This document shows, piece after piece, positions 21,887 through 60,281 of a DNA stretch of 64,000 bases. The notes beneath the pieces are model-generated. The model had not been told where the DNA came from. It worked only from the letters and a program-made list of their open reading frames with translations, and did not search any database. This stretch comes from an uncultured Chloroflexia bacterium. Its GTDB lineage: Bacteria > Chloroflexota > Anaerolineae > Anaerolineales > E44-bin32. Location of the stretch: positions 1,397,990-1,461,989 of the forward strand of contig CAWAND010000010.1 in NCBI GenBank assembly GCA_963783335.1. Direction: 5' to 3'. How positions within the stretch are numbered: position 1 is the first letter of the stretch; every line of letters starts with the position of its first letter. Both the position numbers and the translations under genes were made by a program.

Positions 21887-21928
21887 AATTGTCAGACAAT
21901 TGACGCACACTTCTGCCGGTGCTAGACT
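21887..21928 (+). promoter_or_regulatory. Promoter TTGACG-N17(TGc)-TAGACT overlapped by the perfect palindrome AATTGTC-A-GACAATT
   Basis: Palindrome 21887-21901. -35 at 21900-21905, -10 at 21923-21928. CCAGGAGG RBS, then ATG 21953. The GT-N3-AC core resembles GntR/HutC-type operators, and a GntR gene lies in the operon. Confidence 0.55.
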
Positions 21929-21952
21929 GAATCTACATTCCCAGGAGGCGCT

Positions 21953-23332
21953 ATGCCTACGCTTCTGGTCCGCAACGCCTCGGTCATGGTCACCATGGAC
22001 GAGGAGCGTCGGGAGATTGCCAACGGTGGGCTTTTCGCCAAGGATGGGTGGATCGAACAGGTCGGCCCGTCCGATGAGCTGCCCGACGGGGCCGATATTG
22101 TGGTCGACGCCCAGGATCACCTGGTGCTGCCCGGCCTGATCAACACACATCACCATCTGTACCAAACTCTCACTCGGGCAGTCCCGGCGGCCCAGGATTC
22201 CAATCTCTTCGGTTGGCTCAAGACGCTGTATCCGATCTGGGCCCGCATGTCGGCGGAAGACATCCGCCTTTCCACCCAGCTTGGATTGGCTGAGCTTGCG
22301 CTCTCCGGCTGCACAACCGCCTCGGATCATCTGTACATCTTTCCCAATGATTGCCGGCTGGATGACGAGATACTGGCCGCACGCGATATTGGGCTGCGGC
22401 TGCACGCCTCACGTGGGTCGATGAGTCTGGGCGAAAGCCAAGGCGGCTTGCCGCCGGACCGGGTGGTGGAAGATGAAGATGCCATCCTGCAGGACACTCA
22501 ACGTGTAATTGAGACTTATCACCAATCGGAACCGGGTGCCATGGTCCAGTTGGTGGTGGCGCCCTGCTCGCCGTTTTCGGTGACGCCAGACCTGATGCGC
22601 CAATCCGCCGACCTGGCCAGATCTGCCGGGGTGCATCTGCACACACACCTGGCTGAGACCTTGGATGAAGAGTCGTTTTGCCTTGAGAGCTTCGGCTACC
22701 GGCCGTTGGCCTTTGTGGAACGGTTGGACTGGGCGGGCGATGACGTGTGGTTTGCCCATGCGGTGCACATCAACTCGGAGGAAGTCGGCCGAATGGCGAG
22801 CGCCGGAAGCGGGGTGGCCCACTGTCCGGGTTCCAACATGCGCTTGGCGAGTGGGCTGGCACCGGTCAGACGATATCGGAAGGCTGGCGTGAATGTGGGT
22901 CTGGGCGTGGATGGCTCAGCCAGCAACGATAGCTCCCACCTGCTGGCGGAAGCTCGCCTAGCAATGCTCCTCTCGCGCGTCGGATCGGCAATAGCGCCCG
23001 AGGTCGATCCGGGCGAGGGATTGCTGACCGCTCGGCAGGCGCTGGAAATGGCCACGCTGGGCGGGGCGGCCGTCCTTGGGCGAAAGGACATCGGGGCGTT
23101 GGCGCCAGGGATGTGCGCGGATTTCATCGGCATCGATTTGGGTCAAATCGCCTATGCCGGCGGTTTGCACGATCCAGCAGCCGCGGCGGTTTTCTGCACG
23201 CCGACGAATGTGTCATTCAACTACGTGCACGGTAGGCCCGTAGTATCAGAAGGCCAGGTGACCGGCGTCGACATGAATGTGTTGATCGAAAAACACAACC
23301 GGGCGGCCTTGGCCTTGATTCGGGGCGACTGA
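21953..23332 (+). CDS. Amidohydrolase of the 8-oxoguanine deaminase / AtzB-like clade
   Basis: 459 aa. LLVRNASVMVTMD..PGLINTHHHLYQTLTRAVPAAQDSNLFGWLKTLYPIW is the block I associate with 8-oxoguanine deaminase-type enzymes. Metal ligands HxH, H, H, D present. Confidence 0.75.
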   Translation: MPTLLVRNASVMVTMDEERREIANGGLFAKDGWIEQVGPSDELPDGADIVVDAQDHLVLPGLINTHHHLYQTLTRAVPAAQDSNLFGWLKTLYPIWARMSAEDIRLSTQLGLAELALSGCTTASDHLYIFPNDCRLDDEILAARDIGLRLHASRGSMSLGESQGGLPPDRVVEDEDAILQDTQRVIETYHQSEPGAMVQLVVAPCSPFSVTPDLMRQSADLARSAGVHLHTHLAETLDEESFCLESFGYRPLAFVERLDWAGDDVWFAHAVHINSEEVGRMASAGSGVAHCPGSNMRLASGLAPVRRYRKAGVNVGLGVDGSASNDSSHLLAEARLAMLLSRVGSAIAPEVDPGEGLLTARQALEMATLGGAAVLGRKDIGALAPGMCADFIGIDLGQIAYAGGLHDPAAAAVFCTPTNVSFNYVHGRPVVSEGQVTGVDMNVLIEKHNRAALALIRGD

Positions 23333-23371: not shown

Positions 23372-25171
23372 ATGTCTGATCGTGATTGGAGTGAGATCTC
23401 GCGTGAGCTGACCGATGTCGCCATGGGGCGCATCCCGGCGGACATGATCATTCGCAAGGGGAAATGGGTTTGTGTCCAATCGGGTGAAATCATCGACGAG
23501 ATCGACGTCGCCATCAAGGGCGAACGCATTGCCTACGTCGGTCAGGGCAGCCAGCATTGTGAGGGGCCAGAAACGCAAATCATCGACGCCGAAGGCCGCT
23601 ATCTGGTGCCTGGCTTGATCGACGGCCACATGCACGTCGAATCGGGCATGGTCACGGTCACCGAGTTCGTGCGGGCCGTCCTACCCCATGGGACGACGGC
23701 GATGTTCATTGACCCCCACGAAATCGCCAACGTGTTCGGCCTGAAGGGTGTTCGAATGATGGTGGATGAAGCCGCCATCCAGCCCGTGCATGTCTGGGTC
23801 GAAATGCCCTCATGTGTCCCGTCCGCGCCCGGCCTTGAAACGCCGGGCGCCGTGTTAGGGCCAGATGATGTGGCCGAAGCCATGACCTGGCCAGGGATCG
23901 TTGGGTTGGGTGAGATGATGAACTTTCCCGGCGTGTTTAACAGCGACGAGAAGATGCACGCAGAGATGGCGCGCACTCGGGAGGCGGGCAAGGTCATCGG
24001 CGGCCATTATGCAGCTCTCGATCTGGGGCTTCCCTTCCACGGCTACGTCGCTGGGGGGGCGGAAGACGATCATGAAGGCACGCGGGTCGAGGACGCGGTG
24101 GCCAGGGTCAGGCAGGGGATGAAAGCCATGCTTCGCTTGGGCTCGGCGTGGCACGATGTCGCTGCGCAACTCCCGGCGATCACCGAACTGGGGCTGGACC
24201 CGCGGCACTTCATCCTGGTCACGGACGATTCTCACTCAGGAACCTTGGTGCACGACGGGCATATGGACCGCGTCGTGCGGCATGCCATCGATCTAGGCCT
24301 CGATCCGATGATCGCCCTGCAGATGGCGACATTGAACCCGGCTGAGCATTTCGGTCTGGCGCGCGACATCGGGCAGATCGCACCCGGCCGGTACGCGGAT
24401 GTTGTGCTGGTCCAGGACCTTAAAGATTTCCATGCCGATCAAGTTGTTGCCAGAGGCCAGCTGGCGGCCAGCGGGGGCGAGCTCCTGTTGGATGTCCCCC
24501 AATTCAGCTACCCAGCCGAAGTCAAGGCCTCGGTCCGCCTGGGGCGACAGCTGACCGCCGGTGATTTCGCAGTGCCCACCCGGGCCGAGGGCAGCGTAGA
24601 AGTCAATGTGATCGGCGTCATCGAGAATCAAGCACCGACCAGGCACTTGCGGCTGGAACTGCCTGTGGCTGATGGCCAGGTGCTGTGCGACAACGACCAG
24701 AATGTGGCCAAGGTGGCGCTCGTTGAACGGCATCGCGGCACCGGGGAGGTGCAGGTCGGCTTCGTGCAGGGCTTTGGGATCAATACAGACTGCGCATTTG
24801 GCTCGACCGTGGCACACGATTCCCACCACATGCTCATTGTGGGCACCAAGGATGAGGACATGGCCATTGCCGCCAACGAACTCGCCCGCGTCGGCGGCGG
24901 ACAGATTGTGGTGCGTGAGGGGAACGGTGAGGCGTTGGTCGAGCTGCCCATCGCTGGCCTTATGTCCAACGAGCGCGCCGAGATCGTGGCTGATAAGGCT
25001 GAATCGGTGCTGGCGGCGATGAGGGACTGCGGTTGTGATTTGAACAACGCCAATATGCAGCTCAGCCTTTTGGCCCTGGTCGTGATTCCAGAGCTGCGCA
25101 TCTCCGATCGCGGCCTGGTGGACGTCGAAACCTTTGCAGTTATCCCGGTGATCGCCGAGGAGGCTGACTAA
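23372..25171 (+). CDS. ade: Adenine deaminase
   Basis: 599 aa. PGLIDGHMHVESGMVT..HGTTAMFIDPHEIANV..and the C-terminal Ade-specific domain (NLCDNDQNVAKVALVERH..GFVQGFG..STVAHDSHH). Confidence 0.88.
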   Translation: MSDRDWSEISRELTDVAMGRIPADMIIRKGKWVCVQSGEIIDEIDVAIKGERIAYVGQGSQHCEGPETQIIDAEGRYLVPGLIDGHMHVESGMVTVTEFVRAVLPHGTTAMFIDPHEIANVFGLKGVRMMVDEAAIQPVHVWVEMPSCVPSAPGLETPGAVLGPDDVAEAMTWPGIVGLGEMMNFPGVFNSDEKMHAEMARTREAGKVIGGHYAALDLGLPFHGYVAGGAEDDHEGTRVEDAVARVRQGMKAMLRLGSAWHDVAAQLPAITELGLDPRHFILVTDDSHSGTLVHDGHMDRVVRHAIDLGLDPMIALQMATLNPAEHFGLARDIGQIAPGRYADVVLVQDLKDFHADQVVARGQLAASGGELLLDVPQFSYPAEVKASVRLGRQLTAGDFAVPTRAEGSVEVNVIGVIENQAPTRHLRLELPVADGQVLCDNDQNVAKVALVERHRGTGEVQVGFVQGFGINTDCAFGSTVAHDSHHMLIVGTKDEDMAIAANELARVGGGQIVVREGNGEALVELPIAGLMSNERAEIVADKAESVLAAMRDCGCDLNNANMQLSLLALVVIPELRISDRGLVDVETFAVIPVIAEEAD

Positions 25172-25172
25172 C

Positions 25173-25919
25173 TTGGCACGCAGAAAACGGGGCAAGCGGA
25201 CCCGACCCCTGTACCAGAAGACGGCCGACGCATTGGAGAAGATGCTGGCGGGACTCTCGCCGGGTACCTTCCTCCCGTCCGAGCCTGATTTGGCCAAAAA
25301 GCTGGGGGTTTCACGCGCCACGCTGCGGGAGGCAATGCGACCACTGGAGGCGAAGGGGCGTGTGGTCCGCCGTCAGGGCGTGGGGACATATGTCGTTGAG
25401 CCGCCCCAGGTGATCGAAACCGGCCTGGAAGTGCTGACCAGCATCCAGGCTTTGGCCTCGCGCATGGGGATGACTGTTGAAATGACGGATCTAAACGTCA
25501 CCGTGCGGCGCATCGACGGGCCCGATGACAGCCCGCTCCAGAGCCCGCAAGGGGGGCGCGTGGTGGACGTCTCCCGGGTCATCGTCGCCACCGACAGGCC
25601 GGTCGCCTACCTTGTGGACACCGTGCCTGAGGATATCCTCTCCGCCGAATCGCTTAGGGAAGACTTCGACGGTTCGGTGCTCGAGATCCTCCAAATGCGC
25701 GGCGAGCCGGAACTCGATCGGTCTCAGGCCGAGATCACAGCCACGACCGCCACCTCCAAGATCGCCAAGAGTCTCGGCATCCAGCGGGGTGACGTCCTCT
25801 TGTATCTGGAAGCCTGCCTGTACGACTCATCCGGCCGTGTTGTCGACCATTCACGCAGTTATTTCTTGCCCGGCACTTTTCGTTTTCATGTTGTACGCCG
25901 GGTGGACCAAGCAATGTAG
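25173..25919 (+). CDS. GntR-family (HutC/UTRA subfamily) transcriptional regulator
   Basis: TTG start 1 nt after the ade stop. wHTH LPSEPDLAKKLGVSRATLREAMRPLEAKGRVVRRQGVGTYV plus a UTRA-like effector domain. Confidence 0.85.
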   Translation: MARRKRGKRTRPLYQKTADALEKMLAGLSPGTFLPSEPDLAKKLGVSRATLREAMRPLEAKGRVVRRQGVGTYVVEPPQVIETGLEVLTSIQALASRMGMTVEMTDLNVTVRRIDGPDDSPLQSPQGGRVVDVSRVIVATDRPVAYLVDTVPEDILSAESLREDFDGSVLEILQMRGEPELDRSQAEITATTATSKIAKSLGIQRGDVLLYLEACLYDSSGRVVDHSRSYFLPGTFRFHVVRRVDQAM

Positions 25920-26028: not shown

Positions 26029-26979
26029 ATGAGAAGTTTTGCAGGACGCGACATTCTGTCGCTTAAGGAATTTGAACGTGAAGAGTTCTTCCGGGTGTTC
26101 GAAGTTGCCGATGAATTGGCGCCGTTCGCCCGTGATCGACGCAATACCGACCTCTTGGCCCACAAGACCATGCTGACGGCCTTCTACCAGCCGAGCACGC
26201 GAACTCGCATGGCGCACGAAGCCGCCATGCACCGCTTGGGCGGGCATGTGCTCGGGTTCGCCGATGTCAAGAACACGCGCGCCGGGGACTTCTATCAAGA
26301 GTCGATCAAAGACACCGTCCACATGTTGGAGTTCTACGGCGATGTGATCGTGATGCGCCACTTCCAACAGGGTGCGCCGGCCGAGGCGGCCCGTTGGGCG
26401 AGCATCCCCATCATCAATGCCGGCGACGGTTGGGGTGAACATCCCACCCAGGTGCTGACCGACATGTACACCATCTACAAGGAGCGGGGCACACTCGATG
26501 GCCTGCATTTCCTCTTGGTGGGTGACATGCGCATGCGCACAATGCATTCCATGAGCTATGCCATGTCGCAGTTTGACATCGAGGCGACATACATTTCGCC
26601 GCCGGAAATGTCGCTGACCGATGAGTTCAAGGCCGAGATCGACAAGCTCAACTTGCGCTATCGCGAGGTTGATCACATCAACGAGGCCATCGCAGATGCG
26701 GACGTGATCTACATGGAGCCCGTGGTGCAGCCGGACTACACGAAGGCGCGCGACGAGCGGTCCGGCGACGTCGGCCTCACGCCGGCCAACTATCAGGTCA
26801 CTTTGGACGTGATGAAGAAGGCCAAGCCAGACTCGATCATTCTGCATTCACTGCCGCGGATGGACGAGCTCCTTCCAGAAGTCGACGCCACACGTCATGC
26901 CCGCTATTGGGTGGAAGCGTTCAACGGCGTTGTGATGCGCATGTCGCTGTTGGCTCTGGTTCTGGGGATGATGGAGTAG
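26029..26979 (+). CDS. Aspartate-carbamoyltransferase-like transcarbamylase with divergent second-substrate loop
   Basis: 316 aa. STRTR, GEHPTQ and HSLPRMDEL motifs as in PyrB. The usual S-x-x-KGE-x-x-DT loop reads KNTRAGDFYQESIKDT. Confidence 0.7.
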   Translation: MRSFAGRDILSLKEFEREEFFRVFEVADELAPFARDRRNTDLLAHKTMLTAFYQPSTRTRMAHEAAMHRLGGHVLGFADVKNTRAGDFYQESIKDTVHMLEFYGDVIVMRHFQQGAPAEAARWASIPIINAGDGWGEHPTQVLTDMYTIYKERGTLDGLHFLLVGDMRMRTMHSMSYAMSQFDIEATYISPPEMSLTDEFKAEIDKLNLRYREVDHINEAIADADVIYMEPVVQPDYTKARDERSGDVGLTPANYQVTLDVMKKAKPDSIILHSLPRMDELLPEVDATRHARYWVEAFNGVVMRMSLLALVLGMME

Positions 26980-27039: not shown

Positions 27040-28020
27040 ATGCAAACCAATCTTCGTGGTCGCGATCTGATAAGCGACCTTGATTTCAGCCGGGAAGAGG
27101 TCGAAACTGTCCTCGACGTGGCATTTGACATGAAGCGCAAGCGGGCACTGGGCGAGCCGCATGCCTATCTGCGCGACAAGGTGCTGGCCATGCTGTTCTT
27201 CTTCAGCAGCACCCGCACGCGTGGGTCGTTCGAAGCCGGAATGGCACAACTGGGTGGCCACGCGGCGTTCATCGAATCGCGCACAACCCAGATTTCACAC
27301 GGTGATACCGAAAAGGAAATGGGCGAGATTTTCGGCCGCTATTTCGACGGCATCGCAATCCGGCACGTCGATTGGGGGATCGGCAACCGGTACCTCAATC
27401 TGGTGGCTGAGGCTTCACGAGTGCCTGTGCTCAATATGCAGTGCGAGTTCTACCATCCCCATCAGATCTTGGCCGATTTGATGACGATCATAGAGAAGAA
27501 GGGCCGCGATCTGCGCAAGAAGAAGATGGTTGTCTCTTGGGCATACGCTTCCTCGTACTTGAAGCCAATCTCCGTGCCCCAATCCCTGATCTTGCAGATG
27601 CCACGCTTTGGATTGGACATCACCCTGGCCCATCCTCCGGAGTTTAAACTGATGCCGGACATCATGGACCAGGCGCGAGAGCAGGCCAAACGATTTGGCA
27701 CCGGCTTTGATGTGACCGACAATATGGAAGAAGCCTTCAAAGATGCCGACGTGGTCTATGCCAAATCTTGGGGTCCGCTGCTTACAACGCAAGACACGGA
27801 GAAGGGCAAGGAGATTCAGGACCGCTACAAGGACTGGATCACTGACGAGAAGAAGATGGCGCTGGCGAAATCGGATGCCATCTACATGCACCCGCTGCCG
27901 GCGGATCGCAACGTCGAAGTCACCGATGGCGTGATCGATGGCCCACACAGCGTGGTGTTCGATGAGGCTGAGAACCGTTTGCATGCCCAGAAGGCCGTTA
28001 TGGCCTTGACGATGGCTTGA
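27040..28020 (+). CDS. Ornithine-carbamoyltransferase-family transcarbamylase, specificity unknown
   Basis: FFFSSTRTRGSFEAG, YHPHQILADL, MHPLPADRNVEVT, FDEAENRLHAQKAVM. The ornithine motif DxxxSMG reads DVVYAKSWG. AGGAGG at 27029-27034. In-frame starts at 27034, 27037 and 27040. Confidence 0.75.
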   Translation: MQTNLRGRDLISDLDFSREEVETVLDVAFDMKRKRALGEPHAYLRDKVLAMLFFFSSTRTRGSFEAGMAQLGGHAAFIESRTTQISHGDTEKEMGEIFGRYFDGIAIRHVDWGIGNRYLNLVAEASRVPVLNMQCEFYHPHQILADLMTIIEKKGRDLRKKKMVVSWAYASSYLKPISVPQSLILQMPRFGLDITLAHPPEFKLMPDIMDQAREQAKRFGTGFDVTDNMEEAFKDADVVYAKSWGPLLTTQDTEKGKEIQDRYKDWITDEKKMALAKSDAIYMHPLPADRNVEVTDGVIDGPHSVVFDEAENRLHAQKAVMALTMA

Positions 28021-28028: not shown

Positions 28029-28989
28029 ATGGAACAATCAAACAACGAGCGGAAGCTGGCGGTGGTGGCCGTCGGGGGCAACTCCCTGATCAAGGATAAG
28101 GCCCACCAGACGATCCCGGATCAGTACGCTGCAGCCGGCGAATCCATGGCCCACTTGGCTGACATGATCGAAGCCGGCTGGGACGTGGTGATCACCCATG
28201 GGAACGGACCCCAAGTGGGCTTCATCCTGCGGCGTTCAGAACTGTCCATTGACGAGCTCCACCCTGTCCCGCTGGACTACTGCGGTGCGGATACGCAGGG
28301 AGCCATCGGTTACATGTTCCAGCGGGCGCTGCACAATGAGTTCAAGTCCCGTGGTCTGAACCGCCAGGCGGCGACTGTGGTCACTCAGGTGGAGGTCGAC
28401 CGAGAAGATCCGGCCTTCCAGAATCCGAGCAAGCCAATCGGCACCTTCATGGACGAGACGACTGCCAAGCAGCACGCGCGAGGATGAAGGTTGGGCGGTG
28501 GTGGAGGATTCTGGGCGCGGGTGGCGGCGGGTGGTCCCGTCGCCGAATCCCAAGCGGATCGTCGAGCGCGACGCCATCGAAACCCTAATCAAGGCAGGCT
28601 TCATCGTGGTCAGTGTGGGCGGTGGGGGAATCCCCGTTGTCGCTGACGAGGCTGGGGCATTGAAGGGGGTTGAAGCGGTCATCGACAAAGACTTCGCCTC
28701 CTCTCTTATGGCCTCGAGTATCGGCGCAGACTTGCTCCTGATCTCGACTGCCGTTGAACAGGTGGCGCTCAACTTCAACAAGCCAGACGAGAAGAAGCTG
28801 GACCGCATGACACTGGCGGAAGCCAAGACCTACCTGGCTGAAGGGCATTTCGCCAAAGGCAGCATGGAACCCAAGATACGAGCGGTCATCGGTTTCTTAG
28901 AGCGCGGAGGCAAGGAAGCCTTGATTACCGACCCGCCCAACATCCGGCGGGCTTTGCAGGGAGAAACTGGGACACGGATTGTCCCCTAG
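28029..28989 (+). pseudogene. arcC: Carbamate kinase, split (28017..28487 / 28498..28989) by a frameshift in the CG run at 28474-28482
   Basis: N-part KLAVVAVGGNSL..VVITHGNGPQVG..SKPIGTFMDETTAKQHARG*. The +1 frame continues EDEGWAVVEDSGRGWRRVVPSPNPKRIVE..VVSVGGGGIPVV..AVIDKD. The KPIG-to-GRGW distance matches the family if one base of CACGCGCGAGG is removed. Confidence 0.88.
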
Positions 28990-30384: not shown

Positions 30385-30403
30385 ACGGACGGATGAACCG
30401 CCA

Positions 30404-30435
30404 GGGGGTGGGCCGGCCTTCGGCCGCCCACCCCC
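30404..30435 (+). other. GC-rich intercistronic hairpin after the binding-protein gene
   Basis: GGGGGTGGGCCGGCC-TT-CGGCCGCCCACCCCC (about 14 bp, one bulged C), no U-tract. Lies between the SBP stop (30384) and the ATPase start (30454). Confidence 0.6.
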
Positions 30436-30453
30436 TCTCCCCTTGGGGCAATC

Positions 30454-36252: not shown

Positions 36253-36259
36253 TACTCGA

Positions 36260-37721: not shown

Positions 37722-37756
37722 GCGCATTCCATCTCTCGGAGACTGTCTGACCCTTT

Positions 37757-44245: not shown

Positions 44246-44271
44246 TCCGTCGGGCGAGATCTGGAGGCTGA

Positions 44272-45719: not shown

Positions 45720-45856
45720 GGGGAGACAAAGGGGTGATTAAGGTCGCGGCGGCAATCCGTTAGAATAGGAGATGCCGGTGCCCATGAGGGCCGGCACCAT
45801 TGTGGACGGGCAACCACCCACCTTGAGCGTACGTTGGTTTTGGAGGTTCTCGCTGT

Positions 45857-49437: not shown

Positions 49438-49489
49438 CCGGGGTGGCATGCATCCATCGCCACCCTCAACATGAATTCGAGGGTGAAAG

Positions 49490-50014: not shown

Positions 50015-50067
50015 GCCGCCCAGGACCTGCGGATTCGAAAGGCCTGCCTTGCGAGGCGGATAGAAGC

Positions 50068-53681: not shown

Positions 53682-53736
53682 TCTGAGCGGAGCCAGCTTT
53701 TCGGCCAGGGCCGGAAACGGCCCGAAGGGACAGCTC

Positions 53737-54129
53737 ATGGGACGCGAATCATATCGCTACCGACAGCTTGACAAACAGCGAGAAGAACGCCAGCGGATGA
53801 ATCCGATCTGGCGCGGCGTGGGCTGCCTCATGATGGTGGCTTTCGCCGTGGCAGGATATGCGTTTTCGGGCTGGTTCCTGGCGGCTAACGCTCGCAACGG
53901 CTGGGTTTACCTCCCGCCGGCGGCTGTTCAGCCTCCATTCTTGCCTTCATGGCTGCCGTACGGATTGACGCCCCGGCTTGTGGTCGGGTTCCTGTTCCTG
54001 CTCTTGGGATTCGGCTTGGTGAGCTTCGTGTATGCCATCATGTTCCCGATCAAACCCAGTGAAACGGATGCCCCAACGCCCAAGCGCAGGAAGCAGAAGC
54101 GCGGGGTCTACCGGAGCAGAGGGCGCTAG
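53737..54129 (+). CDS. Small two-TM membrane protein with basic termini
   Basis: AAGGGA 6 nt before ATG 53737 (inside tracked ORF 53617..54129). GVGCLMMVAFAVAGYAF and LVVGFLFLLLGFGLVSFVYAIMF helices. Confidence 0.5.
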   Translation: MGRESYRYRQLDKQREERQRMNPIWRGVGCLMMVAFAVAGYAFSGWFLAANARNGWVYLPPAAVQPPFLPSWLPYGLTPRLVVGFLFLLLGFGLVSFVYAIMFPIKPSETDAPTPKRRKQKRGVYRSRGR

Positions 54130-54135
54130 GCCGAT

Positions 54136-55884
54136 ATGGATCGGACAGTTCCTCGCACTGGCTCAGAGGAAATCGAGCTTTACATCCGAACCTACTATTC
54201 CCTGCTGCGATCAACAGCCGATGTAGAGATTCGCACCTTGGAAGAAGTCCACGCCAGCATGGGTTCGCCACTCCATCCGGGAGCGCGCGCTGCGCTGCCG
54301 GATTTCTCGGCCTTTATCTACAGCTCGCTTCGCCTTCCACAGTGTATGGCCAAGGTAGAAAGGGTGATCCTCGGCCAGAGCCAGGACGTGTTTCGTTTGA
54401 AGGGTATCGGAGACGTTGAGGCGTGGACGCCGGCGGCGGCGAGAGCACGGCGCCGGTTGAGCTACTTCAACGGTGAGGACACGCTCGCCTGTTACATCGC
54501 TAGCCGTTCCGACATCGACGATATCATCCCGCTGCTGACTTCCTTTCAGATTGAGTGGAACAAGCTCCACCGTCTGATGGCTGGTGGGCAGGTGCGCAGC
54601 TATCTGGCCCAAGCCAAGGACGGAGATGATGATGTGGCCGTGTTCGCCCAAGGCCTGGGAGTGGACGCGGAAGAGATGGAACGCCTGCGAAGGGTGTGGG
54701 GAGAGGCTTTCTGGCCTCTCATGCGGGCGATTGCGGAGGGCGGGAAACGTCTGAAGGTGCGTCTCCTTTCGAGTTCTTTGAACGAATACCGGCGGGCCAC
54801 ACAGCTGTGGTGGGAACGAGTCGAGGAGTTGGAGCCGACATTGCTCAACCGGCCGGTCTACTTCGTCTCCAGCAACACGCACAGTCTGGCCAACTTGGTC
54901 TCCGGCTTTGCGCTGCGCCATGAAGATGAATTGATCCGCTTTGTGGACGACACGGGCCAGCCCGACTTGCAGGCGGAATGGCAGGGGATCGAGGCCGAGC
55001 AGGTGCGTTCCAGTCGCGAGAACTTCCTCTACTACGCGTTCAAACGATATATGGACTCGGATGACCCGTTTGGCCTGGTGGCCGGTCTGGCTGATGACGA
55101 AAGAAAGTCTGGTATCCTTCGCGTCCCCAGCGAGCACAGCTTTGATCTAGAAGCCCAGGTCTTCAACTTGTCTGAGATTCAACCCGGTTGGGTAGATCCG
55201 AGATTGGCAGATGAAGAGCTGGATCTGCTCAAACACAGCGACGCCCTGGTTGTGAACATTGACTACCCGCTTGGGATGGCGGCCTACCTCGTATTGGCCT
55301 ATGTCGCCACAAGGGTAGGCGAGCTGCGAGGCGTGTACGTCTTGGGGAAAGCAGCCACTCTCAACGCCATCGTGGGGGATGTCATGATCCCTCAGGTTAT
55401 CTACGATGAGCAGTCACTGAATACCTATCTGTTCGAGAATTGCTTCAAGGCTTCCGATGTCGATCAGGAGCTGATGTATGGGACCGTCCTCGACAATCAG
55501 AAGGCCGTCAGTGTGCGAGGGACCTTCTTGCAGACACCCAGGTACATGGACGTCTTCTATCGCGAAGGCTACACCGACATCGAAATGGAAGCCGGTCCCT
55601 ATCTTTCGGCGATTTACGAACTTGCTCGACCCAAACGCTACCCCGACAATGAGATTGTCAATCTGCACGAGCTTCCCTTCGAGCTGGGCATCCTGCACTA
55701 CGCATCAGATACCCCGTTGAGCAAAGGGCGCAATCTCGGTGCCGGGACGCTTTCCTACTATGGAATGGATCCAACCTATGCCACCAGCCTGGCCGTCCTG
55801 AGGCGCATTTTTCGATCTGAAATCAGGCGTCTTGGGCCCCGCCGGGCTCAGATGGGCGAGGCGGCGGCATCAACACATCAATGA
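54136..55884 (+). CDS. Two-domain protein: unrecognised ~380-aa N-domain + AMP-nucleosidase-like nucleoside phosphorylase-I catalytic domain
   Basis: C-domain has VVNIDYPLGMAAY..VLGKAATLNAIVGDVMIPQVIYDE..TDIEMEAGPY. This parallels the Amn/PNP-UDP pattern (NIGVGPSNA..GHCGGL..GDYVL..VEMES). Confidence 0.65.
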   Translation: MDRTVPRTGSEEIELYIRTYYSLLRSTADVEIRTLEEVHASMGSPLHPGARAALPDFSAFIYSSLRLPQCMAKVERVILGQSQDVFRLKGIGDVEAWTPAAARARRRLSYFNGEDTLACYIASRSDIDDIIPLLTSFQIEWNKLHRLMAGGQVRSYLAQAKDGDDDVAVFAQGLGVDAEEMERLRRVWGEAFWPLMRAIAEGGKRLKVRLLSSSLNEYRRATQLWWERVEELEPTLLNRPVYFVSSNTHSLANLVSGFALRHEDELIRFVDDTGQPDLQAEWQGIEAEQVRSSRENFLYYAFKRYMDSDDPFGLVAGLADDERKSGILRVPSEHSFDLEAQVFNLSEIQPGWVDPRLADEELDLLKHSDALVVNIDYPLGMAAYLVLAYVATRVGELRGVYVLGKAATLNAIVGDVMIPQVIYDEQSLNTYLFENCFKASDVDQELMYGTVLDNQKAVSVRGTFLQTPRYMDVFYREGYTDIEMEAGPYLSAIYELARPKRYPDNEIVNLHELPFELGILHYASDTPLSKGRNLGAGTLSYYGMDPTYATSLAVLRRIFRSEIRRLGPRRAQMGEAAASTHQ

Positions 55885-55899
55885 AATGAGGTCAGACGC

Positions 55900-58128
55900 A
55901 TGCCCGTGATCGGTCAATCCCTCCCACGGTTGGACGCCAAGGATAAAGTCATCGGAAAAGCGCTCTATCCTGGCGACATCAATCGCCCCAACCAGGCCAT
56001 GGCCAAGATCCTTTTCGCCGGCCGGCCCCACGCCCGAATCACACGACTGGATTCAACCAAGGCGGAATCCATGCCGGGCGTCATAGCCGTGTTTACCGCC
56101 AAAGACGTGCCGGTCAACGAATACGGTCTGATCATGCCCGACCAACCCGTCCTGTGTGGGCCGGGTTCAAGCAAGGCAGACGCCGACCACGTGCGCTTTG
56201 TTGGCGATCAAGTTGCTTTGGTTGTCGCGGAAACTGAAACCCAAGCCGAGGCGGCTGTGAAGGAAATCGAGGTTGAGTACGAAGATCTTCCGGTGCTCAC
56301 CGACCCCCTCCAGGCACGGGAAGAAGGCGCCTTCCAGATCCATCCCGATCGGGAGCACAACATCTTCTGTGAGTATCACATCCGGCATGGGGATGTCGCC
56401 TCCGGCTTTGAACAGGCAGACATCATTGTTGAAGGTGAATATCGCACTCCGGCCCAAGAACACGCTTTCCTTCAACCCGAAGCTGGCCTTGCCTACATCG
56501 ATGAACAGGGGCGGGTCACAGTGGAGGTCGGGGGCCAGTGGACCCACGAGGACCGAGAGCAGATCGCCCATGCACTGGATCTCCCCGACGAAGACGTCCG
56601 GATCGTCTATCCCGCCATCGGCGGTGCTTTCGGCGGGCGGGAGGACATGTCGATCCAGATCGTGCTCGCGCTGGCTGCGTGGCGACTTCACCAGAAGGGC
56701 ATCGAACGACCGGTGAAGATCATCTGGTCCCGGGAAGAGTCAATCATTGGGCACCACAAGCGGCATCCCTTTGTCATAAGAGCCAAGTGGGGAGCCACCA
56801 AGGAAGGCAAGGTCGTGGCGGCCGAGATGGAGGTCGTTCAGGACGGCGGTGCCTATGCCTACACGTCCACCAAAGTCTTGGGTAATGCCACATTGATGTG
56901 CAGCGGACCCTACGAGATCCCGAACGTCAAGGTCGACGCCTACAGCATCTACACCAACAACATTCCCGGCGGCGCATTTCGCGGCTTTGGCGCCCCCCAA
57001 GGGATCTTCGCTGCCGAAACGCAAATTGCGCGACTGGCTGAAGCACTCGATATGGACCCGGTTGAGATTCGCATGCGCAATGCGCTAACCGAGTCATCCA
57101 TCCTTCCCGTGGGCACAAAGCTCCCCGGGGGGGTCTCGATGAAGACCGTGATCCAGCGTTGTGCAGAGGAGGCTGGGTGGCGAGAGACGGACGAAGGCTG
57201 GACAGCGCCATCTGCGGATTCGCTTGGAGAACCGTCCGCGCCGCATCTCAAACGCGGGATCGGGTTTGCCTGCGGCTACAAGAACGTCGGCTTTTCTTTC
57301 GGAGCGCCTGAAAGCTGCGAGGCGCGTGTCGAACTCCGGGGAGGCGGCGAGATTGAAGAGCTGTGGGTGCGCCATGCCGGTGCCGACGTCGGGCAGGGCT
57401 CGCACACCGCCATCGCCCAAATGGCCGCTGAGGCAGCAGGGGTCCCGATTGAACGAGTTAGGCTGGAGATGTCCGATACCGCCTCTTCTGGCGATTCCGG
57501 CTCCGCCTCGGCCTCCCGTATGACATTTATGGCTGGCAACGCGGTCCAAGGCGCTGTCGAGGCAGCCTTGCGGCAATGGGAGGCCGAAGACCGGCCGGCC
57601 ATTGGCCAATTCGTCTATCACCCCCCGAAGACGAGTATGCTCGATCCGAAGACGGGAGAGTCCATGCCCAACTTCGCCTACGGCTACGTGGCCGAGGCCG
57701 CCACGGTGGATGTAGACGCTGAGACGGGCCAGTTGCACGTCTTGAACGTGGTTTGCGCCGACGATGTGGGCAAAGCCATCAATCCCGAATTGGTCAAGGG
57801 GCAGATCGAAGGCGCTGTGGTTCAGGCTGCCGGCTATGGCATTCTAGAGAACTTCGTCCAGCAGGATGGCTACGTCCAATCCGCCCATTTCTCGACCTAT
57901 TTGATCCCCGGTATTCTCGACATCCCTGACACGGTCAAGAGCGTGATTGTCGAGTATCCAGACCCTCGGGGCCCATGGGGGGCGCGCGGTATGGCCGAAA
58001 TGCCGTTCATTCCCCTGGCGGCAGCCCTGACAGCGGCGGTGCACAATGCGGCTGGCGTCTGGTTTCACGCCTTCCCGCTCACGCCGGAGAGGGTGCTGGC
58101 GGGCATTCGGCCCTTGAAGGACCAATGA
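55900..58128 (+). CDS. Xanthine-dehydrogenase-type hydroxylase, molybdopterin-binding large subunit
   Basis: 742 aa. RLDAKDKVIGKALYPGD, GGAFGGRED, GFGAPQG, ARGMAEMP blocks of the XDH/aldehyde-oxidase/CoxL family. Confidence 0.92.
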   Translation: MPVIGQSLPRLDAKDKVIGKALYPGDINRPNQAMAKILFAGRPHARITRLDSTKAESMPGVIAVFTAKDVPVNEYGLIMPDQPVLCGPGSSKADADHVRFVGDQVALVVAETETQAEAAVKEIEVEYEDLPVLTDPLQAREEGAFQIHPDREHNIFCEYHIRHGDVASGFEQADIIVEGEYRTPAQEHAFLQPEAGLAYIDEQGRVTVEVGGQWTHEDREQIAHALDLPDEDVRIVYPAIGGAFGGREDMSIQIVLALAAWRLHQKGIERPVKIIWSREESIIGHHKRHPFVIRAKWGATKEGKVVAAEMEVVQDGGAYAYTSTKVLGNATLMCSGPYEIPNVKVDAYSIYTNNIPGGAFRGFGAPQGIFAAETQIARLAEALDMDPVEIRMRNALTESSILPVGTKLPGGVSMKTVIQRCAEEAGWRETDEGWTAPSADSLGEPSAPHLKRGIGFACGYKNVGFSFGAPESCEARVELRGGGEIEELWVRHAGADVGQGSHTAIAQMAAEAAGVPIERVRLEMSDTASSGDSGSASASRMTFMAGNAVQGAVEAALRQWEAEDRPAIGQFVYHPPKTSMLDPKTGESMPNFAYGYVAEAATVDVDAETGQLHVLNVVCADDVGKAINPELVKGQIEGAVVQAAGYGILENFVQQDGYVQSAHFSTYLIPGILDIPDTVKSVIVEYPDPRGPWGARGMAEMPFIPLAAALTAAVHNAAGVWFHAFPLTPERVLAGIRPLKDQ

Positions 58129-58943
58129 ACGGGGTCGGGCCAAGGACCCTGATTCGTGGAGGCGGGGACCTGGCGACCGGTGTCGCCTACCGGCTGCATC
58201 AAGCTGGCTTCGCCGTGGTGGTCGCAGAGACAGAACAACCGCTGGCCGTTCGACGATTGGTGGCCCTGGCCGAGGCGATCTATGCCGGATCGGTGGAAAT
58301 CGAAGGACTGCGCGGCGTCCGCGTTTTCGATGAAGGCGAAATTCAGGCTGCGCTGAAGGCCGGCGAGGTTCCGGTGATTGTCGACCCAGAGGCAGGTTTG
58401 CTGTCGAGCGGCCATTGGATCGCACTTATCGATGGGCGGATGAGAAAACGCCCCCCCGAACTCCCCCTTTCCTCTGCGCCCATGGTGATCGGCTTGGGCC
58501 CCGGGTTTACGGCAGGCAAGGATTGCCATGCTGTCGTTGAGACGAACCGTGGGCACCGCATGGGCCGCGTCTATTGGGAAGGCTCGGCGGAAGCTGACAC
58601 GGGGGTCCCCGAGGCGGTGCTTGGATATGATGTGGATCGCGTCTTGCGTGCCCCTGCCGAGGGTGTCCTCATGTCGCATGTGGCACTGGGTAAGCAGGTA
58701 CATCGAGGCGAGACCATTGCCACGGTGGACGGCCATGAAGTGACAGCTGCCTTCGATGGCGTGCTGAGAGGGCTGATCCACGATGGTCTGCCCGTGCATG
58801 AGGCTATGAAGATAGGCGATCTGGATCCGCGCCGAAATCCCAGTTACTGCACCCAAATCTCTGACAAGTCACTGGCCGTTGGAGGAGGGGTTTTGGAGGC
58901 TATGCTGTCGAGTCCGAAAATCCGGCGGCAGTTGGCGGCTTGA
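58125..58943 (+). CDS. YqeB/EF2563-type selenium-dependent molybdenum hydroxylase system protein
   Basis: ATGA overlap with the Mo subunit. TLIRGGGDLATGVAYRLHQAGFAVVVAETEQPLAVRRLVALAEAIYAG matches my recollection of the short YqeB-family maturation protein. The tracked ORF 57975..58943 has a spurious N-extension. Confidence 0.6.
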   Translation: MNGVGPRTLIRGGGDLATGVAYRLHQAGFAVVVAETEQPLAVRRLVALAEAIYAGSVEIEGLRGVRVFDEGEIQAALKAGEVPVIVDPEAGLLSSGHWIALIDGRMRKRPPELPLSSAPMVIGLGPGFTAGKDCHAVVETNRGHRMGRVYWEGSAEADTGVPEAVLGYDVDRVLRAPAEGVLMSHVALGKQVHRGETIATVDGHEVTAAFDGVLRGLIHDGLPVHEAMKIGDLDPRRNPSYCTQISDKSLAVGGGVLEAMLSSPKIRRQLAA

Positions 58944-60281
58944 GTGCTGCTGTCCAAAGCACTCCGAACCGCTGCCGGCACAACCATCTCCTTCACTGGA
59001 GCTGGCGGCAAGTCCGGCGCGCTGCGTAGACTGGCCGGAGAAACCTCGCCTGACATCCCTGTTCTGCTGACCACAACAACCCACCTTGGCCTCGACCAGG
59101 CCGATTTGGCCGCGTCGCACATTGTGCTGACCGGGCGGATTGATATGGACCGAGCACGAGAAGGGTTGGGGCACACCGGCAGCCTGCTCGTCACCGGCCC
59201 GCCCCTGGAAGACCGGTCCCGCTGGTCCTCGCCTGGCGAAGCCAACCTGATCCTGCTCCATGAGCTCGCCCAGCAGGCCGGGGCGGTGCTGGTGATTGAA
59301 GCTGACGGGGCGCGCGGTAAAAGCCTCAAGGCGCCGGCTGAACACGAGCCACTTGTGCCGAATTTCACAAATATACTTGTGCCCGTCGTGGGGGCGTCCG
59401 TCTTTGGACTCCCGCTTACGGCGGACTTTGTCCATCGGCCGGAGGTGGCCGCCCAGGTTCTAGGTGAGCCCTTGGGGGTGGACCTTACCCCCGGGCGTGT
59501 TGCCAGACTGGTTGGATCCTCGGATGGGGGCCTCAAAGGACGACCGGAGGGGGCCGAGCTGCGCGTTCTCATCTCTCAGGTGGATGAAGCGGGCCGCCGG
59601 GAGGCGGCTCTGGATTGCGCCGCGCAGCTGTTGTTGGCCTCGGATGTGAACTCGGTCATTCTTGCATCTCTGGCGGCCGCCGACCCGGTGGAACAGGTTG
59701 TCGGGCGGACGGCGGGCGTGATCCTGGCAGCCGGCGGCTCAAAACGCTTGGGACGTCCCAAGCTGCTCGAGAACTGGAAAGGGAAGCCGCTGGTTCGCTT
59801 TGCTGTGCAAGCCGCCCTTGCAGGGGGCCTGGCCCCGGTGGTCGTGGTGCTGGGTGACCACGCTCATGAGGTCAGCCGGGCGATCGATGATTTGCCGGTG
59901 CGCACTCTGGTCAATGATCAGTGGGAGATCGGGCAATCGTCGTCCATGCGCCTAGGGCTGGCCGCCGTCCGGGTCAAGGCGGAGGCTGCCATGTTCTTGC
60001 TGGCGGATATGCCGCTGGTCGAACCGAAGCTCATCCGTTCCATTGTCCGGACCCACTGGGCCAGTCTGGCGCCGATTGTCCTTCCACATGCGGAGGGGAA
60101 GCGGGGAAATCCGGTGCTTTTTGATCGATCGACCTTCGATGCCCTGGCGCAAGTCGAGGGGGACACGGGAGGCCGGGCCATTTTCAATCAATTCGAGACA
60201 CAGATTGTGGAAGCTGATGCTCGAGGGTTTTTCGATCTGGATACCCAACAGGACCTGAAGTGGCTGGAGGGCCAGTCATAA
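58944..60281 (+). CDS. Fusion of YqeC-like P-loop protein and MocA/YgfJ-like molybdenum-cofactor nucleotidyltransferase
   Basis: GTG directly after the previous stop. N-half TISFTGAGGKSGALRRLA..VLLTTTTHL (YqeC-type). C-half GVILAAGGSKRLGRPKLL..LLADMPLV (MobA-like NTP transferase). Confidence 0.65.
   Translation: MLLSKALRTAAGTTISFTGAGGKSGALRRLAGETSPDIPVLLTTTTHLGLDQADLAASHIVLTGRIDMDRAREGLGHTGSLLVTGPPLEDRSRWSSPGEANLILLHELAQQAGAVLVIEADGARGKSLKAPAEHEPLVPNFTNILVPVVGASVFGLPLTADFVHRPEVAAQVLGEPLGVDLTPGRVARLVGSSDGGLKGRPEGAELRVLISQVDEAGRREAALDCAAQLLLASDVNSVILASLAAADPVEQVVGRTAGVILAAGGSKRLGRPKLLENWKGKPLVRFAVQAALAGGLAPVVVVLGDHAHEVSRAIDDLPVRTLVNDQWEIGQSSSMRLGLAAVRVKAEAAMFLLADMPLVEPKLIRSIVRTHWASLAPIVLPHAEGKRGNPVLFDRSTFDALAQVEGDTGGRAIFNQFETQIVEADARGFFDLDTQQDLKWLEGQS

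Follow-up and report, generated by a model that had tools for sequence, protein, structure and literature searches.

Does the ~38-kb run of genes considered here encode one purine/ureide degradation supercluster, as the first-pass annotation had proposed, and how much of a catabolic route can be read from it? The region derives from a metagenome-assembled genome of an uncultured Anaerolineales bacterium (Chloroflexota) and lies inside a 64-kb stretch of DNA, the window, which was analyzed as a whole. Families were assigned with NCBIfam and Pfam models, comparing bit scores with the curated cut-offs. Every gene listed in the first pass was confirmed on the plus strand, at its proposed position or no more than a few codons away (Table 1). 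SsnA, YqeB, and YqeC, whose family models had been suggested as a check, scored above their cut-offs, as did D-hydantoinase, adenine deaminase, the 8-oxoguanine-deaminase family, Fno, CofC, CofD, and CofE. These data support the view that the locus serves purine/ureide catabolism and is a relative of the ygeW-xdhD region of E. coli.

The region is composed of two conserved modules lying side by side. Module A parallels in content the E. coli operon ygeWXY-hyuA-yqeA and module B the genes ygfK-ssnA-ygfM-xdhD; the division found in Anaerolineae thus reproduces the split known from E. coli. The previously noted lack of YgeX, YgeY, YgfK, and a permease holds: tblastn searches over the 64 kb returned no match anywhere to E. 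coli YgeY, YgfK, YgfM, XanQ, GhxQ, or UacT, and a mere faint PLP-fold match to YgeX. As a consequence of the missing YgeY, YgeX, and YgfK homologues, three pathway steps rest on non-homologous candidates.

Table 1. Features of the region, with positions in the window and the model matches on which they were assigned (bits; cut-off in brackets).
Feature	Position	Strand	Match or remark
Module A	21953-42493	+	purine deaminases, GntR, CT1, CT2, carbamate kinase, ABC importer, two PLP enzymes, hydantoinase
8-Oxoguanine-deaminase-family amidohydrolase	21953-23332	+	NF006055 663 (532); synteny with module A kept in relatives
Adenine deaminase (adenine to hypoxanthine)	23372-25171	+	TIGR01178 506 (472)
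GntR/HutC-type regulator, UTRA domain	25173-25919	+	PF00392, PF07702
CT1, ATCase-like carbamoyltransferase	26029-26979	+	TIGR00670 254 (237); best PDB match 1ML4
CT2, short OTC/YgeW-like carbamoyltransferase	27040-28020	+	best E. coli match YgeW
Carbamate kinase, YqeA counterpart	28029-28989	+	two halves, profile positions 3-142 and 153-314
Bmp/PnrA-type ABC importer	29089-33990	+	family models
Importer binding protein	29089-30384	+	
Importer double ATPase	30454-31944	+	
Importer permeases	31925-32995, 32992-33990	+	
PALP1, threonine-synthase-family fold-II PLP enzyme, 422 aa	33999-35267	+	TIGR00260 198 (167)
GT2, GtrB/ArnC-like polyprenyl-phosphate glycosyltransferase	35284-36252	+	PDB 5EKP 324
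PALP2, CysK/CBS-like fold-II PLP enzyme, 486 aa	36260-37721	+	N- and C-terminal extensions
Conserved protein, ~155 aa	37934-38419	+	always between PALP2 and hydantoinase
DUF2207 membrane protein	38494-40371	+	spacer
2-TM/Zn-ribbon protein	40403-40921	+	spacer
D-hydantoinase/dihydropyrimidinase, HyuA counterpart	41069-42493	+	TIGR02033 515 (393); last gene of module A
Module B	42887-60281	+	SsnA, F420 tail genes, Mer-like LLM, XDH, YqeB, YqeC-MocA
SsnA aminohydrolase	42887-44245	+	NF005540 501 (444); TIGR03314 471 (455.5); first gene of module B
Fno	44272-44940	+	above cut-off
CofE	44937-45719	+	above cut-off
PPOX-class F420 enzyme	45857-46255	+	above cut-off
FbiB-C-like nitroreductase	46252-46866	+	not above cut-off
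CofD	46857-47810	+	above cut-off
CofC	47807-48442	+	above cut-off
Mer-like F420-type LLM oxidoreductase	48439-49437	+	only F420-LLM families, all below cut-off
Hotdog thioesterase	49490-50014	+	
DHH-CBS-DHHA2 family-II pyrophosphatase-like protein	50068-51411	+	
XdhC/CoxI-family maturation protein	51412-52239	+	37% identical to E. coli YqeB residues 1-264
XDH electron-transfer subunit, FAD domain fused to 2Fe-2S domain	52236-53681	+	
Small 2-TM membrane protein	53737-54129	+	travels with DUF6909
DUF6909 protein	54136-55884	+	PF21850 729
Mo subunit, PucD-like xanthine dehydrogenase	55900-58128	+	PucD model 586 (784)
YqeB	58125-58943	+	TIGR03309 316 (220)
YqeC-MocA (YgfJ) fusion	58944-60281	+	TIGR03172 135 (73); TIGR03310 148 (186)

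Across 32 loci centred on CT2, CT1 was present in 30 and carbamate kinase in 28, with PALP1, GT2, and PALP2 coming next wherever the locus extended far enough. For module B, 45 loci centred on the LLM gene, each from a different species, keep one conserved gene order, including SsnA (42/45), Fno and CofE (43/45 each), CofD (39/45), CofC (44/45), and the Mo subunit (38/45). Gene order is retained in relatives within each module, but not across their junction: modules A and B lie apart in most Anaerolineae, and their adjacency, shared by two or more further species (L175; L174+L007), is confined to the sub-clade of the window. The proposed single supercluster is accordingly better described as two separately conserved modules, which adjoin in this sub-clade only.

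This separation would also agree with A and B being unrelated neighbors, module B serving purine ring reduction and XDH and module A a self-contained nucleoside-uptake/ureido pathway, e.g., reductive pyrimidine or hydantoin catabolism by dihydropyrimidinase, phosphorolysis of N-carbamoyl amino acids, and carbamate kinase, to which SsnA products would not contribute. The hydantoinase indeed passes the dihydropyrimidinase model, and the ATCase-like CT1 could take N-carbamoyl-aspartate-like or N-carbamoyl-beta-alanine-like substrates. However, module A harbors two purine deaminases, YgeW-specific motifs in CT2, and no PydA-like pyrimidine reductase; its gene set matches that of the E. coli ygeW-hyuA-yqeA operon, whose action downstream of SsnA is proven, and it is joined to module B in at least three species. 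We consider such independence unlikely and assume a functional coupling of the two modules.

The deaminases and the regulator are conserved in position. Adenine deaminase is kept upstream of GntR-CT1-CT2 in relatives, as is the place of the GntR/HutC-type protein, likely the local regulator of module A. The 8-oxoguanine-deaminase-family product may provide an entry step, converting 8-oxoguanine or a guanine-type base to urate or xanthine. The importer slot is likewise conserved, with the transporter itself being exchanged or missing in some relatives. The substrate pocket of CT1 differs from that of ATCase: R229 and Q231 are replaced by P and V, the K83/K84 loop is exchanged, and HPLP reads HSLP, all conserved across 54 orthologues. 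Residues contacting carbamoyl phosphate and the alpha-carboxylate are retained, while those binding the aspartate beta-carboxylate are missing; the pathway role of CT1 is presumptive. CT2, for which no NCBIfam model reaches its cut-off, is closest to YgeW (35% identity, 191 bits versus 132 for ArgI and 94 for PyrB) and shares with it the signature motifs SY.KP.SVPQS and KSWGP instead of the OTC motifs DxxxSMG and HCLP. Carbamate kinase is ~50% identical to E. coli YqeA. In this assembly, one extra nucleotide at 28480 interrupts its frame, and similar insertions affect AspS, a Ser/Thr kinase, and PALP2 (1 nt at 36812). Three of these sites are covered by further assemblies of this species with 99.8-99.9% identity (carbamate kinase by five contigs, Ser/Thr kinase by two, PALP2 by one); none of them has the insertion, showing these three genes to be intact. 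The carbamate kinase, encoded as an intact 319-aa protein in all five independent contigs, is thus frameshifted by an assembly artefact. With the YgeW motifs of CT2 and this YqeA-like kinase intact in the population, the suggested ATP conservation via carbamoyl phosphate is plausible.

The stretch 35284-40921, initially taken for an unrelated interruption, has to be reinterpreted, since GT2 and the small open reading frame at 37934 are conserved members of module A. In most relatives, GT2 is flanked by the two PLP genes (63-77% identity; missing in L135, L136, L139, and L153), and the small protein, for which no Pfam match was found, is 56-79% identical in L113, L126, L150, L174, L175, L178, and L179. 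The spacer at 38494-40921, in contrast, is specific to the sub-clade of the window (in L010, L174, and L175; not in L178 and L179) and probably stands outside the pathway. Hydantoinase, 39% identical to E. coli HyuA, has an orthologue (70-71%) following PALP2 and the small gene in species with SsnA elsewhere, and it therefore is a member of the carbamoyltransferase module and not of the SsnA block. PALP1, directly following carbamate kinase in loci without the transporter, reached 183 bits against PDB 2ZSJ and 55 bits with the DAP ammonia-lyase model (cut-off 276). PALP2 homologues are 76-98% identical across Anaerolineales. Only putative roles can be assigned to both PLP enzymes.

These identities bear on an anabolic housekeeping function, in which CT1 would be PyrB, CT2 ArgF, PALP1 ThrC, and PALP2 CysK, alongside FolD, an F420 biosynthesis operon, a Mer-like C1 enzyme, and carbamate kinase as carbamoyl-phosphate synthase. 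CT1 and PALP1 narrowly pass the PyrB and ThrC models, FolD is syntenic with module A, and CT2, PALP2, and LLM are unusually conserved (76-99% identity), a frequent trait of core enzymes. Yet CT2 is devoid of the ornithine-binding motifs and CT1 of ATCase R229, Q231, and K84, PALP2 reaches only 43-59 bits with the PALP/CysK models and carries large extensions, the genes share a GntR/UTRA regulator with catabolic deaminases, importer, and hydantoinase, and LLM is locked to SsnA in 42/45 and to XDH in 38/45 species, making this assignment very improbable for the locus. Part of module A may nevertheless be housekeeping, with PALP1 above the threonine-synthase cut-off and GT2 being a GtrB-like cell-envelope enzyme.

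In module B, SsnA adjoins the F420/LLM block (Fno-CofE-CofD-CofC-LLM) in those 42 of 45 Anaerolineae species; no FO synthase gene was found in the window. The LLM protein, with F420-dependent Mer as nearest solved structure (8QQ8, E 6e-43), is 80-88% identical in >560 species hits. It is a candidate oxopurine (2,8-dioxopurine) reductase, presumably using F420, in the place which YgfK occupies in the gut-bacterial pathway. The same protein was proposed, by bioinformatics only, as the Chloroflexota 2,8-dioxopurine reductase substituting for YgfK/UacX (Li et al. 2025, Life Metab, PMC12507026). The linkage to SsnA and this independent proposal both support the first-pass suggestion of an F420-dependent enzyme where YgfK would be.

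The sole Mo enzyme of the window is of the canonical XDH type. Its Mo subunit shares 28-30% identity with XdhA as well as with XdhD and contains GGAFGGRE and FRGFGAPQ, i.e., Glu and Arg at the positions of bovine E802 and R880. An XdhD type is ruled out by these XDH-type residues together with the missing XdhD E606 loop. A YgfM/XdhD-like pair is located between the LLM and DHH genes in 26/45 relatives; in the window no XdhD/YgfM-type urate 6-dehydroxylase was found, the gap 50014-50068 being cleanly without the pair. Since the remaining Mo enzyme is a canonical XDH, the complete nucleoside-to-pyruvate route claimed before is not readable from the window alone, its XdhD/YgfM-type first committed step being missing. 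This clean absence, set against close relatives that keep the pair (L010, L171), could together with the split kinase frame indicate a decaying, non-functional locus in this lineage. But the kinase is intact in the five contigs, 1-nt insertions also in the essential aspS and two other genes point to assembly error, all remaining genes are full length, and Pelolinea-type clusters are likewise without XdhD, which marks the absence as a common state; decay is thus extremely improbable.

Among the maturation genes, the XdhC-family protein has its E. coli homologue in the N-terminal half of YqeB. YqeB and YqeC are markers of the selenium-dependent Mo-hydroxylase trait, and the MocA part represents an MCD cytidylyltransferase. 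Judging from these two neighbors, to which the earlier "Se-type" label also goes back, the XDH is probably Se-dependent; no selD was found in the window. The formerly "AMP-nucleosidase-like" protein is most probably the DUF6909 protein. Its AF2 model (pLDDT 76) retrieved exclusively NP-I superfamily members among the top 50 Foldseek PDB matches (probability 0.99-1.00), and an EMEA-type motif is invariant, which predicts a nucleoside-phosphorylase-I type domain (PNP/UP/MTAN/AMP-nucleosidase).

Taken as a whole, the region likely represents an Anaerolineales version of reductive anaerobic purine/urate degradation (the 2,8-dioxopurine or "yanthine" pathway), brought together from two modules, with all substrate assignments being predictions. 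Purine nucleosides or bases would be imported by the Bmp-type ABC importer, and the NP-I-fold DUF6909 protein would free the base from nucleoside or nucleotide. Adenine deaminase, the 8-oxoguanine-deaminase-family enzyme, and XDH, matured by the XdhC-like protein, YqeB, YqeC, and MocA, would funnel the bases; for the step from urate to 2,8-dioxopurine, the window holds no XdhD-type gene. The Mer-like LLM would reduce the oxopurine with F420H2, regenerated from NADPH by Fno, the F420 tail being supplied by CofC, CofD, CofE, and the FbiB-C-like protein of the same operon. SsnA would immediately open the pyrimidine ring and the hydantoinase the remaining one. Ureido groups may then be removed by phosphorolysis through YgeW-like CT2, possibly also CT1, replacing the missing YgeY hydrolase, with carbamate kinase converting carbamoyl phosphate to ATP and one or both fold-II PLP enzymes deaminating the C3 product to pyruvate.

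The locus thus looks like an uncharacterized variant of the known, recently discovered anaerobic uric-acid/purine pathway. If this holds true, it would be a variant of purine breakdown that depends on coenzyme F420 rather than on the reductase of gut bacteria.

Open reading frame listing combined with family scans, in which bit scores were compared with curated cut-offs, recovered the genes listed by the first-pass annotation on the plus strand, many of them with family assignments above the curated cut-off. The models for SsnA, YqeB, and YqeC, named beforehand as a check, all matched above cut-off: full-length SsnA with 501 bits for NF005540 (cut-off 444) and 471 bits for TIGR03314 (455.5), YqeB with 316 bits for TIGR03309 (220), and YqeC with 135 bits for TIGR03172 (73). 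The hydantoinase reached 515 bits for TIGR02033 (393). An Rfam scan of the whole window returned no purine, xanthine, or Moco riboswitch; its sole match was a 6S/SsrS RNA (RF00013, 62800-62973, plus strand, 83.7 bits against a gathering threshold of 46.4) just 3' of aspS. Predicted sigma-70 promoters and intrinsic terminators across 21-61 kb were no more numerous than expected from shuffled sequence, or fewer, and did not inform the operon boundaries.

Genes of the purine/ureide catabolic locus and their positions in the window
Feature	Position	Strand	Family model
8-oxoguanine-deaminase-family enzyme	21953-23332	+	above curated cut-off
Adenine deaminase	23372-25171	+	above curated cut-off
GntR/UTRA regulator		+	
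Carbamoyltransferase CT1	26029-26979	+	
Carbamoyltransferase CT2	27040-28020	+	
Carbamate kinase (CK)	28029-28989	+	
Bmp-type ABC importer		+	
Two fold-II PLP enzymes (PALP1, PALP2)		+	
GtrB-like GT2		+	
DUF2207 protein		+	
D-hydantoinase	41069-42493	+	above curated cut-off
SsnA	42887-44245	+	above curated cut-off
Fno, CofE, PPOX-class F420 enzyme, CofD, CofC	44272-48442	+	above curated cut-off
F420-type LLM	48439-49437	+	
Hotdog protein		+	
DHH-CBS-DHHA2 protein		+	
XdhC-family protein	51412-52239	+	
Fused FAD/2Fe-2S subunit		+	
DUF6909	54136-55884	+	
PucD-like Mo subunit (XdhMo)	55900-58128	+	
YqeB	58125-58943	+	above curated cut-off
YqeC fused to MocA	58944-60281	+	YqeC above curated cut-off

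The gene content resembles that of the reductive urate (2,8-dioxopurine or "yanthine") pathway of E. coli and Clostridium, whose members are XdhD-YgfM (DOPDH), YgfK (DOPOR), SsnA, HyuA, YgeW, YqeA, YgeY, and YgeX (PMC12507026; bioRxiv 10.1101/2025.04.24.650524). The window encodes homologues of SsnA (33% identity across 437 aa), HyuA (39%), YgeW (35%, with shared motifs), and YqeA (~50%, the carbamate kinase), so that HyuA-type hydantoinase, YgeW-type carbamoyltransferase, and CK occur together. They are accompanied by YqeB, YqeC, MocA, and an XDH-family molybdenum enzyme, and the same division into an upstream and a downstream operon-like block is apparent. In contrast to the known pathway, YgfK, YgeY, YgeX, the XdhD/YgfM pair, and a nucleobase permease are missing. 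E. coli YgeY (M20), YgfK, YgfM, XanQ, GhxQ, and UacT have no counterpart within the 64-kb window and YgeX gave a faint PLP-fold match only; the absences reported in the first-pass annotation (YgeX, YgeY, YgfK, nucleobase permease) hold at this scale. No dioxopurine reductase of the YgfK/UacX type stands beside SsnA; at the YgfK position the operon instead carries a non-homologous, Mer-like F420-type oxidoreductase (LLM), Fno, and F420 tail genes. Further differences are an additional carbamoyltransferase, which is ATCase-like, a pair of unrelated PLP enzymes compared with the single YgeX, uptake by an ABC importer, and an NP-I-fold DUF6909 gene inside the XDH operon. The core of the earlier reading, namely a purine/ureide catabolic locus with F420 chemistry in place of YgfK and ATP gained via carbamoyl phosphate, was right.

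The carbamate kinase frame is interrupted in the window, and comparison with nine same-species contigs (NCBI, JGI, Logan; 99.0-99.9% identical) traced this to one of three window-specific 1-nt insertions, at 20727 (Ser/Thr kinase), 28480 (CK), and 36812 (PALP2). The extra base is absent from the covering contigs (n = 2, 5, and 1, respectively), in which the products are intact with 674, 319, and 486 aa. The essential aspS is also split in the window, by an extra T near 62309/62310, and three of the four insertions (20727, 28480, 36812, ~62310) change GAGTC to GAGTTC. The pattern resembles a recurrent consensus error of long-read data, possibly tied to methylated sites of the GANTC type. The insertions are assembly errors, not pseudogenes; a true carbamate kinase pseudogene was rejected because five other assemblies carry the intact gene. 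Upstream of the Ser/Thr kinase lies a DUF1800/DUF1501 pair (15980-18755), which is also present in one of the same-species contigs (L085).

Gene order in relatives divides the locus into module A (deaminases to hydantoinase) and module B (SsnA to YqeC-MocA). A metagenome scan with CT2, the YgeW-like carbamoyltransferase, yielded 80 loci at 82-99% identity, and the 32 loci of at least 10 kb were used for counting. These keep the order (FolD)-8-oxoG deaminase-adenine deaminase-GntR-CT1-CT2-CK-(ABC importer)-PALP1-GT2-PALP2, with CT1 in 30/32 and CK in 28/32. In most relatives, module A likewise begins next to FolD (20953-21843 in the window), as FolD-deaminase-deaminase. The importer is swapped or absent in some loci, where CK is directly followed by PALP1 and PALP2. 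GT2, a GtrB/ArnC-like polyprenyl-phosphate glycosyltransferase, is in place in most loci and absent in four, and is therefore probably a passenger. The hydantoinase had been grouped with SsnA, which was not borne out: in L178 and L179, which are distant species, the next genes after PALP2 are the conserved small ORF found at 37934-38419 in the window and a 70-71% identical hydantoinase, after which come unrelated genes and no SsnA. The hydantoinase thus belongs to module A.

The full arrangement of both modules, including the spacer of the small ORF, DUF2207, and a further ORF (o40289), recurs in one related locus (L175, PALP2 82% identical), and it is found with an extra XDH pair on one 52-kb contig (L174 and L007). 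Contigs matched by length (94 kb, 33 kb, 21 kb, and 1.46 Mb) suggest further cases in which both modules share one contig. In most Anaerolineae, modules A and B are more than 10 kb apart. The proposed 38-kb supercluster is thus a lineage-specific juxtaposition of two modules that would complement each other functionally. Module A appears to hold counterparts or stand-ins for all genes of E. coli ygeW-ygeX-ygeY-hyuA-yqeA, and module B likewise for ygfK-ssnA-ygfM-xdhD, the XdhD/YgfM pair being excepted in the window.

An LLM scan with one genome per species produced more than 560 relatives, of which the best 80 are 80-88% identical and all from Anaerolineae or Chloroflexota, including Pelolinea submarina MO-CFX1 and MAGs assigned to Anaerolinea thermophila, Bellilinea, and Levilinea. 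Among 45 LLM-centred loci that extend the full 10 kb in both directions, CofC was present in 44, Fno and CofE in 43 each, SsnA in 42, CofD in 39, the Mo subunit in 38, the FAD/FeS subunit in 32, DHH in 24, and XdhC in 22. Module B order is kept in these loci, running SsnA-Fno-CofE-(PPOX-FbiBC)-CofD-CofC-LLM-(hotdog) and continuing to DHH-XdhC-XdhFAD-(small membrane protein-DUF6909)-XdhMo-YqeB. The F420 block is thus a conserved partner of SsnA and not an insertion. LLM (80-88%), CT2 (82-99%), and PALP2 (76-98%) are far more conserved across Anaerolineae than their operon neighbors (typically 40-70%). In Pelolinea submarina MO-CFX1, a divergently oriented 462-aa M20 peptidase gene (L054, 4097-5485, minus strand) lies directly upstream of SsnA; it is missed by tblastn with E. 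coli YgeY and may be a YgeY analogue where module A lies elsewhere.

Mer catalyses hydride transfer from F420H2 to a C1 unit carried on a pterin. The nearest solved relatives of LLM are F420-dependent Mer enzymes (best E 6e-43), and only F420-type LLM models and Mer structures match it, every model below its equivalog cut-off; in the NCBIfam scan no equivalog model claims the protein. LLM matches Mer and other F420-dependent enzymes of this type (FGD, Adf) in fold and family and differs in its context, purine catabolism in a non-methanogen, where it is a candidate reductase. The catabolic operon includes CofC, CofD, CofE, and Fno, all above cut-off, and with them the genes for the F420 tail. 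An FO synthase (CofG/H or FbiC) was found neither in the window nor within 10 kb of the loci in relatives, raising the question of whether FO is made or scavenged, e.g., from methanogen partners. An F420-type LLM in this role has been put forward before, as a remark based on bioinformatics: Chloroflexota SsnA neighborhoods without YgfK/UacX were reported (Li et al. 2025, bioRxiv 10.1101/2025.05.19.654654; Life Metab, PMC12507026), with a PF00296 LLM beside SsnA mentioned in one sentence and a colored network (Li et al. 2025, PMC12507026). The window represents that variant. That paper covers neither the embedded F420 biosynthesis genes and Fno nor the CT1-CT2-CK-PLP-hydantoinase module, and it does not describe DUF6909, the variable number of Mo hydroxylases (one to three), or clusters without an XdhD type. 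In the literature searched, no further paper linked F420, SsnA, and uric acid.

In 26/45 relatives, the stretch from the LLM/hotdog genes to DHH also encodes a fused FeS-Mo protein of ~1000 aa. Aligned full length, this protein and E. coli XdhD share 35-40% identity (540-600 bits), and it retains the loop with XdhD Glu606, a residue implicated in substrate orientation (Li et al. 2025, PMC12507026). In one locus (L171) a YgfM-like FAD protein precedes this gene. No XdhD-like gene occurs within the 64-kb window, where the hotdog gene ends at 50014 and DHH starts at 50068, and Pelolinea-type clusters likewise lack one; an XdhD-type gene could be located elsewhere in this genome. The window XdhMo is 30% identical to XdhA and 28% to XdhD, has no E606 loop, and carries GGAFGGRE and FRGFGAPQ, whose Glu and Arg we take to be the positions of bovine XOR E802 and R880. 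With these XDH-type residues and no E606 loop, it reads as an ordinary hypoxanthine/xanthine dehydrogenase. Its identification as XdhD/DOPDH was rejected on architecture, E606 loop, and similarity. In this organism, LLM may take another oxopurine instead of 2,8-dioxopurine.

Related clusters (L006, L025, L042, L067, and others, at 0-4 kb and 12-15 kb; L171, 2005-5789) contain as many as three Mo hydroxylases, namely an XDH like that of the window, a pair of XdhD/YgfM type beside LLM, and, immediately upstream of SsnA, a third FAD plus Mo pair (33-40% identical). Of these, the window carries only the first. YqeB and YqeC, markers of the Se-dependent Mo hydroxylase trait, adjoin XDH; selD is absent from the window. 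In two distant relatives, a gene for SelB, the selenocysteine elongation factor, follows module A at a distance of ~7 kb (L178, 18847-20748; L179, 18780-20699), which hints at selenium use in the group. E. coli YqeB (541 aa) is a fusion whose halves match the window XdhC-family protein (37%) and YqeB (45%); the two window genes are 6 kb apart and flank the XDH structural genes (comparison locus L170, 16615-18240).

For CT2, YgeW is the best E. coli match (191 bits, compared with 132 for ArgI and 94 for PyrB), and both proteins share SY.KP.SVPQS and KSWGP. CT2 is shorter (326 vs 396 aa), lacking two YgeW insertions, and scores below cut-off for the YgeW knotted carbamoyltransferase model TIGR03316 (190-196 bits vs 500 and 453). 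It probably works like YgeW but is not filed as an equivalog. An assignment as ArgF was rejected on active-site residues: CT2 has KSWGPL and HPLP in place of the OTC motifs DxxxSMG and HCLP and stays below the cut-offs of OTC models (248-261 bits vs 281-306). CT1 resembles ATCase (1ML4, 243 bits), with STRTR, R105, HPTQ, and R167 all retained, and its PyrB HMM scores are borderline (254 vs 237, and 227 vs 263). Identity with PyrB was nonetheless rejected on active-site residues, as the aspartate binders R229 and Q231 and, from the adjacent chain, K84 are missing; Pro and Val occupy the places of R229 and Q231, and the 80s loop (K83/K84) is rebuilt, all invariant in 54 orthologues. CT1 thus retains an alpha-carboxylate binder but no beta-carboxylate pocket, which fits an N-carbamoyl amino acid other than carbamoyl-aspartate as putative substrate.

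Ureido phosphorolysis followed by carbamate kinase follows the logic of arginine deiminase-type ATP generation, and both carbamoyltransferases preserve STRTR and HP(T/H/F)Q, the motifs for carbamoyl phosphate. Unlike that system, the window has no arginine deiminase, and the ornithine motifs of OTC and the beta-carboxylate binders of ATCase are missing from CT2 and CT1, respectively. Published pathways disagree on which ureido group is taken by YgeW (Li et al. 2025, PMC12507026; Liu et al. 2025, bioRxiv 10.1101/2025.04.24.650524). With YgeY absent, both ureido groups could be removed by phosphorolysis here. Regarding the PLP enzymes, PALP1 is threonine-synthase-like (55 bits vs 276 for the DAP ammonia-lyase model) and PALP2 is a distant CysK/CBS relative with extensions; an assignment of either one as YgeX was rejected at the family level.

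DUF6909, for which we found no paper, has no sequence-level match to NP-I in Pfam or PDB, the PDB sequence search giving noise only. An AlphaFold model built from 37 homologues (pLDDT 76, pTM 0.77) placed all top 50 Foldseek matches in the NP-I superfamily (probability 0.99-1.00, TMt 0.32-0.62), among them uridine phosphorylase, MTAN, PNP, and AMP nucleosidase. This predicted alpha/beta fold is combined with an EME-type ribose-binding motif of the superfamily, the invariant EMEA-type DIEMEAGPY, and supports the earlier call of an AMP-nucleosidase-like protein. The model suggests that DUF6909 would release the base upstream of XDH.

The locus represents a known pathway in a so far uncharacterised variant form and offers several non-homologous replacement candidates: LLM for YgfK, CT1 for YgeY, and PALP1 or PALP2 for YgeX. 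New here are the division into two modules, the placement of F420 supply genes within the operon, and the CT1/CT2 signatures, as well as the DUF6909 NP-I fold, the absence of an XdhD type in this lineage, and the artefactual frameshifts. A more far-reaching reading, which we consider rather improbable, is that Anaerolineae dearomatise an oxopurine with F420H2 via the Mer-like LLM, with the cofactor tail genes in the catabolic operon, while CT2 and an ATCase-derived CT1 that lost its beta-carboxylate pocket phosphorolyse both ureido groups, giving two ATP per purine vs one; without XdhD, LLM may then act on xanthine or urate, bypassing 2,8-dioxopurine. If true, LLM would be the first F420-dependent purine reductase.

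The reductive urate pathway was elucidated as recently as 2023-2025, the organisms being gut Proteobacteria and Firmicutes. The locus indicates how it appears to be run in Anaerolineae, a group abundant in both anaerobic digesters and sediments, with a differing redox cofactor, an operon-embedded cofactor supply, and a possible second ATP-yielding carbamoyltransferase step; for DUF6909, a first function is suggested. If confirmed, LLM would give F420 a physiological role in Anaerolineae and widen the known F420 chemistry to include purines, and uricolytic strains could be engineered with it as an alternative reductase.
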